A DNA stretch of 62,218 bases, taken from NCBI GenBank assembly GCA_022704145.1, contig JAKJGY010000002.1:1-62218 (forward strand), read 5' to 3'. A program made the translations under genes and the position numbers. Every line of letters begins with the position of its first letter. Positions within the stretch are counted from its first letter, which is position 1. The stretch is from Verrucomicrobiota bacterium (GTDB lineage: Bacteria; Verrucomicrobiota; Kiritimatiellia; RFP12; UBA1067). Shown piece by piece: positions 48,055-57,907 of this stretch. The notes below the pieces were generated by a model. It did not search any database and was not told where the DNA came from. It was given only the letters and a program-made list of their open reading frames with translations.

Positions 48055-49452
48055 TCACCGTTGTGACGGCAGGTGAAGGCAACGGCCGAGCGCCTGGGCG
48101 GCGGATTCCATCAAAGTCTCGGAAAGGGTGGGGTGGGCGTGGATCAGGTCGGCCAGCTCCTCGGCCGTGACCTCCATGTTCCGCAGCGCGGCGGCCTCGT
48201 TGATCAGCTCGGAGGCGTGCGGCCCGATGATATGGACGCCCAGCAGCTCATGATGACGCGCGCCTGCGACCACCTTGACAAAACCCTCCGTGTGCCCCGC
48301 GCTGCGCGCGCGACCGTTGGCGGCGAAGGGGAAGCGCCCGACCGTGACCTCGCCCTCGGCGCGCGCCTGCGCTTCCGTGAGGCCGACCCAGGCGACCTCG
48401 GGCGCGCCGTAGATGCAGCCGGGCACCTGCCGCGCGTCGAACGCGGCGCGGCCTCCCAGAGCATGCCGCGCCGCTACCGCGCCCATCGCCGCGGCGGCGT
48501 GCGCCAGCATCGCGCGTCCGTTGGCGTCGCCGGGCGCGTACACCCCAGGCAGGCTGGCGCGCAGGGCGTCGTCGACCGCCACGAAGCCACGCCGCGTCTC
48601 GACCGGCAGCGCGCCGAAGGCCGCGAGGTCGGGCACGCGCCCGGTGGCGAGCAGCACGTGGCTGGCGGGCAGGTCGGAGGCGCCCTCGACGCTGACACGC
48701 AGCCCGGAGCCCGCGTCGCGGATGGCGCTGACACGTACGCCGGTACGGATGGCGATGCCACGCCGCGCGAGGCTCTGGCGCAGCGCCTCGGAAAGTTCGG
48801 CGTCAAGGAAGGGCGCGACGCGCTCCTCGGCCTCGAGCAGCGTGACCGCCGCGCCGTACGCGCGGAAGACCTGCGCCAACTCGATGCCGACGACGCCCGC
48901 GCCGATCACGACCAGCGAGGTCGGCAACTCGGTCAGGTCGAGAAGCGTGTCGGAGGTCAGCACGCGCGGATCATCCGAGCCGGGGATCGGCGGCACGGCC
49001 GGCCGCGAGCCGCAGGCGACGATCACGGCCTTGGCTGCGGCGAGGCGGCGCGCGCCGTCCACGACGGCCTCGCGCGGAGACCGCAGTGCGGCGTCGCCAC
49101 GGACGACCTCGACACCGCGGCTGGCGAGGAGCTGGCCGATGCCCGCAACCAGCGGCGCGACCACGGCGTTCTTGGCGGCGACCGCCTGCGGCAGGTCGAC
49201 GGTGAAGGAGGGGTCGGCGATACGGATGCCGCGCGACGCGGCCTGGCCGAGGGCCTCGATGATCTCGGCGTTGCGCAGGAAGGTCTTGGAAGGGATACAG
49301 CCGCGGTTGAGGCAGGTGCCGCCGAGCGGACCGCGCTCGACCAGCGTCACGCTCGCGCCGAGGCGCGCGGCCTCGAGCGCGGCGACGTAACCGGCCGGCC
49401 CCCCGCCGATGACGATGATGTCGGGGGGGATTTCAGATAGAGGTGCATTCAT
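48055..49452 (-). CDS. lpdA: Dihydrolipoamide dehydrogenase (E3)
   Basis: IGGGPAGY, GGTCLNRGCIPSK, IGAGVVGIE, HPTLSE. Confidence 0.93.
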   Translation of the reverse strand: MNAPLSEIPPDIIVIGGGPAGYVAALEAARLGASVTLVERGPLGGTCLNRGCIPSKTFLRNAEIIEALGQAASRGIRIADPSFTVDLPQAVAAKNAVVAPLVAGIGQLLASRGVEVVRGDAALRSPREAVVDGARRLAAAKAVIVACGSRPAVPPIPGSDDPRVLTSDTLLDLTELPTSLVVIGAGVVGIELAQVFRAYGAAVTLLEAEERVAPFLDAELSEALRQSLARRGIAIRTGVRVSAIRDAGSGLRVSVEGASDLPASHVLLATGRVPDLAAFGALPVETRRGFVAVDDALRASLPGVYAPGDANGRAMLAHAAAAMGAVAARHALGGRAAFDARQVPGCIYGAPEVAWVGLTEAQARAEGEVTVGRFPFAANGRARSAGHTEGFVKVVAGARHHELLGVHIIGPHASELINEAAALRNMEVTAEELADLIHAHPTLSETLMESAAQALGRCLHLPSQR

Positions 49453-49469
49453 AAACGGCTCCTGGTTTT

Positions 49470-49555
49470 ATCCGCGAATGGACGCGAATCAACGCGAAAG
49501 GTGATGGGTGCGCAGCGGCACGACGATTCGTGTGCATGGGCGTTCATTCGCGGAT
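49470..49555. repeat. 10-nt-period (CGCGAAT) tandem/inverted hairpin element
   Basis: ATCCGCGAATGGACGCGAATCAACGCGAA ... ATTCGTGTGCATGGGCGTTCATTCGCGGAT. Confidence 0.85.
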
Positions 49556-49567
49556 TCCTATCTGCCC

Positions 49568-50728
49568 TCAGCGGAGCGCGCGCTCCTCGGCGATGGTCTG
49601 CAGCAGAGCGGTGATATTCGCGAGGGGCACATCGGCCATGATCTCCTGCGAGGGGGCGATCATATAGCGTCCGCCGCGGCCGAGCGTGCGGATCACGCGG
49701 CGCGCCTCGGCGCGGACCTCGTCAGGCGTGCCGTAGGGTAGGAGCTGCTGCGTGTCGATGCCGCCCCAGAGCGAGAGGCGGTCGCCAAAGTCACGCTTGA
49801 GCGCGTCGAGATCCATACAGGGCTGAACAGGCTCGAGCATATCGAGCCCGACGTCGAGCAGGTCAGGGATGAAGGGCGTGATGTCGCCGCAGGAGTGCAT
49901 GATCATCGGCAGGCCGGCCTCCTTGAAGACCTTGAAGAGCCGGGCGATGCGCGGCAGAATCAGGCCGTGGAACTGGGCGGGCGAGACCAGCGTGCCGCTC
50001 TGGCAGCCGAGATCGTCGCCGTGGTGGCCGACCTTGAAACCCAGCTCGATCTTCTTGCGCGCCACGGTGAGCTTATAGTCGGTGATCTTGTCCATCAGGA
50101 TCGCGACCGACTCGGGGTCGGTCAGGGACTCGACCATGAACTCCTCGAAGCCCATCAGGCAGTAGGTGCGTTCATAGATGCCGAGGTAGCCCGAGGGCAC
50201 GACGAGCAGGTCGCCGGAGGCGTGGGCCGCGAGGTCGCGCCGCATGTCGTCGAAGTTGTCGGGTCGCAGCGGGTCGGGCGGCTGGTAGGCGCGCACGGCA
50301 TCGGCCACCGGCATATCGAGGAGCGCGCGGTCGAAGCGGTCGGGCAGGAACGGCTCGGCGCGCTCGTTGGCGGCGCGGTCGCCCTGCAGCGGGTGGTAGC
50401 AGGCGAAGAAGCCGTCCTCGCCGATCTTGATGCCCATGCCCCAACTGTCGTAGACCACGCCGTTGGCGCGGTCGACCTTGACGTAGCCCTTGGCCTCCAG
50501 CTCCGCCATCTTGGCGGCGTCGTTGCGGTAGAAGAGCGGCGTGTCGCAGAGGGTGAGGGAGAAGCAGATGTGGTTGTCGAGGAAGCCGTCCAGCTCGGCA
50601 GCGCCCGCGAGGCCCAGCGCGCGGGCGAGGGCCTCGTCCTTGGTGCGGTCGGCGATCGTGATCTGGCTGGGGAGGTAGTCGACAGGCCGGCCGGTGATGA
50701 CGTTGAGGGCGCGTTCTTCGCGGGTCAT
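49568..50728 (-). CDS. UroD/MtaA-fold (uroporphyrinogen decarboxylase family) protein, copy 1
   Basis: GDDLGCQSGTLVSP, MHSCGD, EPVQP, WGGIDTQ..L..GTPDEV. Confidence 0.85.
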   Translation of the reverse strand: MTREERALNVITGRPVDYLPSQITIADRTKDEALARALGLAGAAELDGFLDNHICFSLTLCDTPLFYRNDAAKMAELEAKGYVKVDRANGVVYDSWGMGIKIGEDGFFACYHPLQGDRAANERAEPFLPDRFDRALLDMPVADAVRAYQPPDPLRPDNFDDMRRDLAAHASGDLLVVPSGYLGIYERTYCLMGFEEFMVESLTDPESVAILMDKITDYKLTVARKKIELGFKVGHHGDDLGCQSGTLVSPAQFHGLILPRIARLFKVFKEAGLPMIMHSCGDITPFIPDLLDVGLDMLEPVQPCMDLDALKRDFGDRLSLWGGIDTQQLLPYGTPDEVRAEARRVIRTLGRGGRYMIAPSQEIMADVPLANITALLQTIAEERALR

Positions 50729-56953: not shown

Positions 56954-56990
56954 GTGCCGTCATTGGAACATAGCGTGTGCGTGGTGTCAA
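56954..56990 (-). promoter_or_regulatory. Kinase-operon promoter with IclR-like operator over -10
   Basis: TTGACA (56990-56985)-N17-TCCAAT; site GTGCCGTCATTGGAACA at 56954-56970. Confidence 0.65.
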
Positions 56991-57024
56991 GTCTGCACGC
57001 GAGTGAACCATGAAGTTACTGCGA

Positions 57025-57080
57025 TTGACAGACGACACGCGTTGTGTTCTAATGGCGGTACGTTGGTTCACATTAAGAAC
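57025..57080 (+). promoter_or_regulatory. iclR promoter with operator over -10 and a second downstream site
   Basis: TTGACA (57025-57030)-N17-TCTAAT; site TGTTCTAATGGCGGTAC at 57045-57061; GGTTCACATTAAGAAC at 57065-57080. Confidence 0.65.
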
Positions 57081-57124
57081 GGTGATGGGATTCTCGTGAC
57101 AGGCGGGTACGGGAGGGTGCAAGA

Positions 57125-57907
57125 ATGGTGGTGCGAAAGGTGACGCGGGCGCGTAAGATCACGGGCGTGCCGATCTTGGAGCGGACGCTGGGGCTGCTGG
57201 AGTACCTGAGCCAGTGCCCGGCCGGCGTGGCGCTGAGCGAGATCGCGCGGGCGCAGAAGATCCCGAAGAATACGACCTACCGGATGCTGAACACGCTCTG
57301 CGCGCGCGGCTACGTGGCGCGTAACGAGGCGGAGCTGACCTACCGGCTCACGCGCAAGCTGGCGACACTCGTCTATTCCAGCGCGCAGGACGGAAGCCTG
57401 ATCGAGAAGGCGCTCGGGCCGATGCGCGCGCTACGTGACCGCGTGAAGGAGACGGTGGTGATCAGCATCCTCGACGGATCGGAGGGGATCGTGCTGGAGC
57501 AGGTTCCGGGGTTGTACCCGTTCCGTTTCGTTTGCGATCCGGGCACGCGGCAGCCGCTGCACGCGTCGGCCTCCACCAAAGCCATCCTCGCGTTTCTTCC
57601 ATCGGAGGAGCGCGAGGCGCGCCTTTCCGGTCTGACCTTTGCGCGTTTCACGGAGAACACCCTCACGCGGGCCGCCGCCTTCCGCAAGGAGCTGGCCGAG
57701 ACGCAGGCGCGCGGCTACGGCATCGACCGCGCCGAGGCTTTGCACGGTGTTCACTGTGTTGCGGCGCCTGTGCTGAACCGGCAGCGCCAGCCTGTGGCGG
57801 CGATCACGGTGACGGGGCCGGACGAGCGGTTGCGCGCGGAGGATTTCGCGCAGATCGGCGAATGGGTCAAGGCGTGCGCGCGCGAGGTCTCGGAAGGGAT
57901 CGCGTGA
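57125..57907 (+). CDS. IclR-family transcriptional regulator
   Basis: VPILERTLGLLE..LSEIAR..PKNTTYRMLNTL HTH; PLHASASTKAIL; RGYGID..CVAAPV..AITVTGP. Confidence 0.95.
   Translation: MVVRKVTRARKITGVPILERTLGLLEYLSQCPAGVALSEIARAQKIPKNTTYRMLNTLCARGYVARNEAELTYRLTRKLATLVYSSAQDGSLIEKALGPMRALRDRVKETVVISILDGSEGIVLEQVPGLYPFRFVCDPGTRQPLHASASTKAILAFLPSEEREARLSGLTFARFTENTLTRAAAFRKELAETQARGYGIDRAEALHGVHCVAAPVLNRQRQPVAAITVTGPDERLRAEDFAQIGEWVKACAREVSEGIA

Follow-up and report, generated by a model that had tools for sequence, protein, structure and literature searches.

Multienzyme complexes that depend on lipoamide are known for 2-oxo acids, acetoin and glycine, and the acetoin-type E1 component cleaves α-ketols. 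We analyzed a 62,218-nucleotide stretch of DNA from a Verrucomicrobiota bacterium (hereafter the window; contig C391 of a 4.57-Mb, 415-contig metagenome-assembled genome, MAG), in which genes for such a complex stand in one operon with an FGGY sugar kinase and two proteins of the uroporphyrinogen decarboxylase (UroD)/MtaA fold. The encoded complex shares with the acetoin dehydrogenase system (AcoA/AcoB/AcoC/AcoL) a heterodimeric, thiamine diphosphate (ThDP)-dependent E1, a lipoyl-bearing E2 and an E3. The genes very probably encode one functionally linked, uncharacterized pathway. Our best overall explanation, offered tentatively as one just short of an even chance, is a catabolic operon for a sugar or polyol derivative in which two modules would share one kinase.

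A first-pass annotation, made from the letters alone, had named eight genes at this locus. A listing of open reading frames (ORFs) and family scans of the window proteins (Pfam and NCBIfam, with cut-offs) recovered all eight, with the families and coordinates it had given:

55330–56904, minus strand: FGGY carbohydrate kinase, XylB/LsrK-like, first gene of the operon (FGGY_N and FGGY_C)
54218–55333, minus strand: uroD2, UroD/MtaA-fold protein 2 (URO-D, 90 bits; HSCG)
53151–54146, minus strand: E1α, ThDP-dependent, acetoin-type (E1_dh, 279 bits)
52043–53023, minus strand: E1β (Transket_pyr and Transketolase_C)
50725–52035 (listed start 52074), minus strand: E2 dihydrolipoyl acyltransferase (one Biotin_lipoyl, E3_binding, 2-oxoacid_dh)
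49568–50728, minus strand: uroD1, UroD/MtaA-fold protein 1 (URO-D, 100 bits; HSCG)
48055–49452, minus strand: E3 dihydrolipoyl dehydrogenase, last gene (TIGR01350, 475 bits against a cut-off of 409)
57125–57907, plus strand: IclR-family regulator, divergent from the operon (HTH_IclR and IclR_C)

The seven minus-strand genes, with the divergent IclR gene, are confirmed as a real operon. The overlapping or tight junctions described in the first-pass annotation hold for three of the six: kinase/uroD2 and E2/uroD1 each overlap by 4 nt, and E1β and E2 are 7 nt apart given an E2 start at ATG 52035. The remaining junctions are wider, at 71 nt (uroD2/E1α), 127 nt (E1α/E1β) and 115 nt (uroD1/E3). The listed E2 start, TTG 52074, would overlap E1β by 32 nt; ATG 52035 is probably the true start, because homologues align from there (residue 14 of the listed ORF). 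The housekeeping genes nusA, infB and ribF adjoin upstream of the cluster, which we therefore take to end near 48 kb.

Catalytic motifs, which had been called intact, proved so in E1α, E2, E3, the kinase and both UroD-like proteins. E1α carries the ThDP motif (GDG-x28-NN), E2 the lipoyl-lysine motif ETDK and the catalytic DHRVIDG, and E3 the redox disulfide CLNRGC and the His-Glu motif HAHPTLSE; the kinase has DVGT, and HSCG is present in both UroD-like proteins. The general features of a 2-oxo-acid dehydrogenase-type multienzyme complex (ThDP, lipoyl-lysine, DHRxxDG, disulfide and His-Glu motifs) are all in place. E1β passes the NF006667 subfamily cut-off (376 versus 321) and is 54–88% identical to its counterparts in related loci; the E3 gene lacks a counterpart in many related clusters. 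In the E2 inter-domain linker (window 51670–51776), repeated TRPSSS...SSSP segments flank an acidic stretch.

To place the E1α, we built a tree of 91 sequences, made up of 80 related loci from species genomes, the references and the second copy in the window's own genome. The references were annotated pdhA, branched-chain 2-oxo acid dehydrogenase (BCKDH) and aco E1α sequences from plasmid records, and the tree was rooted on BCKDH. Two pdhA (pyruvate dehydrogenase, PDH) references branch first, outside an Aco-type superclade (SH-aLRT 97) that contains Burkholderia acoR-acoX-acoABC, Acinetobacter, Thermus 'acoA', C. difficile acoABCL and all 80 loci. Within it, the window E1α belongs to a 53-row subclade (SH-aLRT 99) that takes in every locus with a kinase or UroD orthologue nearby and leaves the reference aco operons outside. 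The motif T-H-R-G-H is found in 87 of the 91 rows, the window included, where the three pdhA/BCKDH (2-oxo-acid) references read x-Y-R. In human PDHA1, the residue aligned with its His is the Tyr of AYRAHG, which we take to be the active-site Tyr89. E1α also scores below the PDH equivalog cut-offs TIGR03182 and TIGR03181 (340.6 versus 393.85 and 256.5 versus 411.35 bits, respectively). The tree and the THRGH motif thus uphold the earlier assignment of the E1 to the acetoin type rather than to the PDH or BCKDH type.

The subclade further departs from the references, Aco and PDH alike, in having GGCMH for GGSMH; it also reads C-(V/T)-N-N for C-E-N-N, and LLVxNTYRxMGHS for E-x-x-T-Y-R-(aromatic)-x-G-H-S. 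The 53 rows alone also have F-C, and every reference has GGS and two glutamates at the respective columns. The window E1α carries THRGH, GGCMH, CVNN and LLVANTYRIMGHS, reading V-A-N-T-Y-R where reference AcoA reads E-x-x-T-Y-R. Aligned to human PDHA1 (1ni4), the clade-specific columns lie next to the NN motif that binds Mg/ThDP and to the catalytic His-Ser, positions whose structural role we assume from the PDH literature. Judged by tree and alignment, the E1 is acetoin-type by ancestry with a re-modelled active site, which argues against plain acetoin or pyruvate as the substrate; the loss of two conserved glutamates would fit an anionic one. In a derived Spirochaete/Treponema part of the clade, T and W replace the V and I of the kinase-linked rows, and E1, E2, E3 and SorC are kept without a nearby kinase. 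The signature GGCMH, C-V/T-N-N and LLVxNTYRxMGHS offers a means of recognizing the subclade in annotation.

Neighborhood comparison of the 80 E1α loci confirmed that the kinase linkage is conserved across phyla. Kinase orthologues (48–65% identity) lie within 10 kb of E1α in 13 of these loci, in MAGs labelled Lentisphaeria/Verrucomicrobiota/Victivallales, Planctomycetaceae, Caldilineaceae (Chloroflexota), Desulfobacteraceae/deltaproteobacterium (Desulfobacterota) and several Spirochaetota, at least five phyla altogether. The closest E1α relative (L029, 88% identity) is labelled uncultured Lentisphaeraceae bacterium. Orthologues of uroD2 (57–90% identity) stand directly upstream of E1α in L029, L030, L032, L033, L037, L058 and L116–L123, the E1α-linked lineages being labelled as three phyla; uroD1 orthologues occur in the clusters of L017/L022, L029, L030, L032, L033, L042, L119, L122 and L123. 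When the search was reversed and started from uroD2, 13 orthologues of at least 57% identity were found in metagenome contigs, with E1α immediately downstream in eight; two of the 13 contigs are too short to judge. Synteny from both search directions therefore shows the UroD linkage, too, to be conserved across phyla. Since both linkages are conserved and the E1 has a subclade of its own, the outcome named beforehand as fatal to the first-pass proposal, an E1 grouping as an ordinary pyruvate or acetoin dehydrogenase together with a linkage that is not conserved, was not what we found.

Gene order varies among relatives. In L017 it runs MFS, iron-dependent alcohol dehydrogenase (Fe-ADH), uroD1 (75% identity), FGGY, uroD2, E1α, E1β, E2, E3, so that the order differs from that of the window and the gene set is retained; the closed genome G197 (L022/L030) has the same cluster order as L017. 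'Bacterium M21' carries FGGY, URO-D, an unknown gene, a short-chain dehydrogenase/reductase (SDR), E1α, E1β and a shortened E2. Either half of the set can also stand alone. DeoR, FGGY, uroD2 and parts of a CUT2 ABC transporter occur in L125, L127 and L128 with no E1 within about 8 kb; L125 and L128 also have uroD1 and an Fe-ADH or SDR, and L127 has a second, divergent UroD-like gene and a non-orthologous FGGY kinase (27%). Conversely, L039, L040, L044 and L054 have E1α, E1β, E2 and a kinase with no UroD gene. The occurrence of both partial sets points to two modules sharing the kinase. In a sample of 301 genomes of the window's phylum, only the window genome and G197 had a uroD2 orthologue, and three genomes had an E1α of more than 60% identity, a patchy distribution as expected of a transferable accessory pathway.

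Dehydrogenases are frequent companions: a YqhD-like Fe-ADH is found in L022, L029, L033, L119 and L122–125, and L037, L109 and L128 have in common an SDR (62–66% identity among them). Genes of the SGL type (SMP-30/gluconolactonase-like) are neighbors of several Spirochaete clusters and of the P0143 locus. Taken with importer and repressor genes, the relatives' loci resemble an operon for a polyol or ketose, with its importer, dehydrogenase, FGGY kinase and repressor, to which UroD-fold enzymes and a lipoamide complex have been joined. Two loci, P0143 and L025, have genes for a microcompartment shell (BMC, EutN/CcmL, CsoS1D_N) within a few kilobases of their E1 operons; the former also has an aldehyde dehydrogenase and SDRs, and a MetE-like Meth_synt_2 gene where others have a URO-D gene, and the latter has RpiB.

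The operon kinase scores 325.1 bits against the XylB model TIGR01312, below its cut-off of 380.25 (a Spirochaete orthologue reaches 340.8), 233.5 bits against the autoinducer-2 (AI-2) kinase model NF008187 (LsrK), below its cut-off of 528, and 264 bits against an FGGY gluconokinase model. Its best Protein Data Bank matches, 3ifr and LsrK 5ya0, are nearly tied, with LsrK second. No paralogue of the kinase in this genome exceeds 32% identity to it. At the contig end (window 61801–62217, minus strand), the C-terminal part of a second FGGY kinase runs off the stretch; this fragment is 35% identical to residues 379–501 of the operon kinase.

Both UroD-like proteins match URO-D only in part, over profile positions 86–346 (uroD2, 90 bits) and 154–345 (uroD1, 100 bits) of 346, and are the sole URO-D matches on the 62-kb contig. 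A HemE would be expected to show a full-length match in a haem-synthesis context; here the matches are partial and the context is one of sugar genes. Their NCBIfam matches are MtaA-type and the sequences lie nearer MtaA than HemE, with scores of 45.5 (uroD2) and 86.7 bits (uroD1) against the MtaA/CmuA model TIGR01463, both below its cut-off of 235.4. The solved structures that match them are MtaA, HemE and, weakly, CdmB, and no others; the uroD2 family profile has its best match among them in MtaA 4ay7 (E 4.8e-8) and matches the chloromethane methyltransferase CdmB weakly. We take the zinc ligands of MtaA to be His240, Cys242 and Cys319. In the 4ay7 alignment, H-x-C is kept and the distal zinc-Cys column reads Gln-Glu in uroD1, which has APSQE where MtaA has APGCG, and Asn-His in uroD2. 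Each pattern is conserved within its family, and the uroD1 family conserves H278, C280, E299, Q361 and E362.

The earlier statement that no corrinoid protein lies nearby stands for the whole 62-kb contig, where no B12-binding domain was found; matches elsewhere in the genome fall only on C321, C284, C47, C81 and C147. It does not extend to every relative. Within the L037 cluster, a 216-residue corrinoid protein (B12-binding_2 plus B12-binding) is encoded between a sugar-binding protein gene and an SDR gene, divergent from FGGY-uroD2-E1, and its presence supports a methyl-removal reading. Removal of a methyl group from a sugar derivative is our leading guess for the UroD-fold proteins, which might instead be decarboxylases or other metal-dependent enzymes. 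The superfamily includes the methionine synthase that does not depend on cobalamin, epoxide:coenzyme M transferase, as well as O-, S- and halogen-demethylating corrinoid methyltransferases (PMC10418091). On C321 of the window's own genome (1566–4528), a corrinoid protein, an MtaA-like UroD protein whose C-terminal extension is rich in Cys and a CobW-type GTPase are encoded in succession, with an AraC-like gene nearby; this cluster looks like the mlp-type clusters of PMC10418091, and the MAG has no other clear corrinoid methyltransferase set.

Between the kinase and the IclR gene lies one further feature:

56905–57124, no strand: divergent intergenic region with promoter-like hexamers and near-palindromic sites

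On the plus strand, it contains TTGACA, a 17-nt spacer and TTCTAAT, together with the inverted partners CATTGGAAC and GTTCTAATG; all were read directly, and the consensus scan listed neither the hexamers nor the partners. The latter could be operators for the IclR protein, and the divergent arrangement and the palindromes suggest IclR control of the operon. The best NCBIfam match of the regulator is BhcR (188 bits, below the cut-off of 350). IclR genes also stand beside related clusters in the P0143 locus and L026/L031, and among relatives the regulator may be of the SorC, DeoR or IclR type, the SorC ("Sugar-bind") proteins being closest to B. subtilis DeoR and LsrR. Regulators of the SorC/DeoR type sense sugar phosphates.

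On these grounds, we propose a pathway in two parts. Module A would prepare and phosphorylate the substrate by means of both metal enzymes of the UroD/MtaA fold and the FGGY kinase, which is XylB/LsrK-like; in relatives it also includes a transporter and an Fe-ADH or SDR dehydrogenase. The UroD-fold proteins would act as tailoring enzymes, most likely removing methyl groups with a corrinoid protein supplied in trans. Module B, the acetoin dehydrogenase-type E1α/β, E2 and E3, would carry out carbon–carbon cleavage. E1 is the sole chain-breaking enzyme in the conserved core and the kinase is common to both modules, so the simplest reading is that E1 cleaves the kinase product, which we regard as possible, at somewhat less than an even chance. 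In the order of steps that we infer, E1-bound ThDP would attack the keto group of a phosphorylated α-ketol and the distal part would leave as an aldose phosphate; the two-carbon unit would then pass to the E2 lipoyl arm and on to coenzyme A (CoA), with NADH made by E3.

Such cleavage of a phosphorylated ketose, the 'oxidative phosphoketolase' of the first-pass annotation, is chemically plausible. [quoted passage not shown] Two entries in the reference list of PMC3424233 offer precedents: 1-deoxyketoses are reported to arise through the action of pyruvate and acetoin dehydrogenases (Yokota and Sasajima 1986), and 1-deoxy-D-xylulose to be phosphorylated by the xylulokinase of E. coli (Wungsintaweekul 2001). 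The most specific version of the proposal, a lipoamide-dependent 'oxidative phosphoketolase' that cleaves 1-deoxy-ketose phosphates and is fed by demethylating UroD-fold enzymes, we consider rather unlikely.

Several observations weigh against the proposal. The third zinc Cys of MtaA is replaced in both UroD-like proteins, and a corrinoid gene is nearby in only one of about ten UroD-bearing clusters. In E1β, the sole subclade-specific column removes a basic residue. The kinase-linked subclade has no member from a cultured, studied organism, and the proposal is sequence-based. The kinase, E1α, UroD-like proteins and regulator all miss equivalog cut-offs, so no model assigns a substrate; likewise, the Fe-ADH, SDR, SorC and binding proteins of relatives reach no NCBIfam equivalog cut-off. 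Synteny indicates a shared pathway, within which E1 could act on a small downstream product, and the SGL gene of several relatives hints at a sugar-acid route, which would fit a 2-oxo-acid substrate better. A further lead to DXP weakened. Dxr-like genes lie beside the E1 operon in L037, L046, L078 and L096, and IspD-like genes in L098, L105, L106 and L108; this adjacency is mostly Spirochaete housekeeping synteny (rpsB...uppS-cdsA-dxr-rseP), with a single dxr in each genome checked. Because the Spirochaete cases reflect one shared position, only L037 counts as independent, and the lead is weak. As to a possible replacement of DXP synthase by E1, the window genome and G197 both have a full-length dxs; in G299 and G301–G304 none was detected, only C-terminal-half (split-transketolase-like) matches. 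G301–G304 have one dxr each (G299 was outside the dxr search), and T. primitia ZAS-10 (G304) has five dxs half matches.

Among the alternatives, the complex may be a conventional acetoin/2,3-butanediol (or pyruvate) dehydrogenase that oxidizes a small end product, with the kinase and UroD-fold proteins feeding it from upstream. Membership in one superclade with the reference Aco operons, the common THRGH motif, a SorC-type regulator that also stands beside the C. difficile aco operon, and an E2 and E3 of canonical appearance are all in keeping with this. The well-supported subclade that excludes those operons, and the conserved active-site columns in which it differs, argue otherwise, as does the gene inventory: genes for AcoR, AcoX and a butanediol dehydrogenase are absent from the cluster, another E1/E2/E3 set exists elsewhere in the genome, and in the related clusters examined we found no aldolase or other carbon–carbon-cleaving enzyme that would give a small ketol. 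We judge this explanation fairly improbable. The E1 might also be a 2-oxo-acid dehydrogenase for a phosphorylated keto-sugar acid, for example a 2-keto(-3-deoxy)aldonate phosphate reached via a lactone and an aldonate, which the complex would decarboxylate oxidatively to a shortened acyl-CoA. The SGL genes would supply the lactonase, the kinase resembles FGGY gluconokinase as well, and SDR and Gfo/Idh/MocA oxidoreductases are frequent neighbors; against that, the position that is Tyr in the three 2-oxo-acid references holds a His, the residue found in acetoin-type E1s, and the cluster has no dehydratase gene and no enzymes for an unusual acyl-CoA nearby. Both the substrate and the decarboxylation it entails seem improbable to us.

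A different role for the UroD-fold proteins would dispense with a corrinoid altogether. True UroD turns -CH2-COOH into -CH3, and similar decarboxylases could convert a 2-deoxy-3-keto sugar acid into a methyl ketone (a 1-deoxy-ketose), a product that would suit an acetoin-type E1. The Pfam URO-D matches, the missing third zinc cysteine of MtaA and the lack of a corrinoid gene in most clusters all lean this way, but the sequences are closer to MtaA than to HemE, a corrinoid protein is encoded inside one related cluster (L037) and no source of such β-keto acids is encoded. This role is quite improbable in our estimation. That the genes are chance neighbors rather than parts of one pathway is very improbable indeed: half of the junctions are 71–127 nt wide and a promoter-like match lies between E1α and E1β, but the same orthologues co-occur in several phyla, in varied order and from both search directions. 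We therefore retain the two-module catabolic operon as the preferred reading.

Related genes occur elsewhere in the same genome. A second E1α/E1β pair lies on C334/C37, E2 and E3 on C33, and a fused E1 on C254; none of the other E1α proteins reaches the PDH equivalog cut-off. URO-D matches occur in 13 places, and an FGGY kinase is again paired with a UroD-like gene on C175, C212 and C310, which makes the pairing a recurrent design in this organism. The neighbors on C310 are a GH116-like glycosidase, an RbsD/FucU-like protein, a sodium:solute symporter and a DeoC-like protein, the last read from the sequence with no Pfam match. On C47, a UroD-like gene stands between alpha-L-rhamnosidase-like and GHL6-like genes. 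The second E1α (C334) groups in the tree with L024 (G254:C52, 5213–11693), an E1α/E1β pair whose E1α is 47% identical to that of the window and whose neighbors are a lipoyl/E3-binding-only protein, an SDR, two ketoacyl synthases and a GT2 glycosyltransferase. Another sugar-linked Aco-type complex, here in a cultured organism, is L027 on Rhizobium sp. N324 plasmid pRspN324e, with a sugar ABC transporter, a sugar kinase, a SorC-type regulator, an NAD(P)H oxidoreductase, E1α, E1β, E2, LpdA and a class II aldolase.

Beyond the IclR gene, the window encodes one large protein:

58138–61794, plus strand: large NPCBM / HZS-alpha / FGE-sulfatase-domain protein, 1218 residues (domain matches)

It is a conserved neighbor: homologues follow the cluster in P0011/L017 and come immediately after E2 in L119, and another adjoins a uroD1 homologue (53% identity) in the E1-less loci L020/L021. 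The protein may act on an extracellular source of the substrate; its membership in the pathway is uncertain.

If the proposal is correct, a branch for phosphorylated sugars would extend the 2-oxo-acid dehydrogenase-type complexes by one substrate class and one reaction class, both new, and fermenting bacteria would gain a new route from sugars to acetyl-CoA and thereby to ATP. In many anaerobes, UroD-fold enzymes would strip methyl groups from sugars or polyols without oxygen, a first function for a large orphan, sugar-locus branch of the UroD superfamily; with 13 such paralogues in this genome alone, the cluster gives a concrete handle on them. The carriers are uncultured Lentisphaerae, Spirochaetes, Desulfobacterota, Chloroflexota and relatives, and the isolate names of some MAGs come from a peat experiment (SPRUCE). 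The substrate of the cluster may be a sugar derivative of plant or microbial origin that is common yet has been overlooked.

A full-text literature search on the gene combinations returned no description of such a cluster, and each known system resembles it in part. In the Lsr system for AI-2, the end result is an acetyl group on CoA and a triose phosphate. Its likeness lies in the CUT2 ABC importer and SorC-type regulator of relatives and in the LsrK-like FGGY kinase of the window; however, that kinase misses the LsrK cut-off, the cluster has no LsrF- or LsrG-like gene, and the proposed cleavage would be oxidative and ThDP/lipoyl-dependent, not thiolytic. In phosphoketolase and in the transketolase of D-apiose catabolism (apulose-4-phosphate), a ThDP enzyme cuts C2–C3 of a kinase-made phosphorylated ketose. 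Those enzymes release acetyl phosphate or pass the unit to an aldose, whereas the window complex would oxidize it onto lipoamide and CoA with NADH. The corrinoid methyltransferases of the UroD superfamily (MtaA/MtbA/MtsA; OdmB/VdmB; CdmB) have the same fold, and H-x-C is kept in the window proteins, but unlike in MtaA-type systems the contig has no corrinoid protein or activase and the context is sugar catabolism. Enterobacterial pentitol operons (dal/rbt) combine a dehydrogenase, an FGGY kinase, a transporter and a repressor. The E1-less L125 and L128 follow this plan with a DeoR-type repressor and differ by two added UroD-fold genes; the window differs by its dedicated lipoamide complex.

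The acetoin dehydrogenase system, compared as acoXABC (Cupriavidus/Burkholderia) and acoABCL (Bacillus/Clostridioides) operons, shares the superclade, the THRGH motif and the expected chemistry, α-ketol to acyl-CoA and aldehyde. The window E1α falls in a separate subclade, with GGCMH, C-V-N-N and LLV..YRIM in place of the reference columns. The cluster lacks AcoR (a sigma-54 activator) and AcoX and has an IclR regulator instead, and unlike Aco the subclade is linked to a sugar kinase, often to UroD-fold genes, and to transporters and SorC/DeoR/IclR regulators. By sequence comparison, then, the complex descends from the acetoin dehydrogenase system and operates in its manner, and it differs in reference clade, active-site columns and companion genes.

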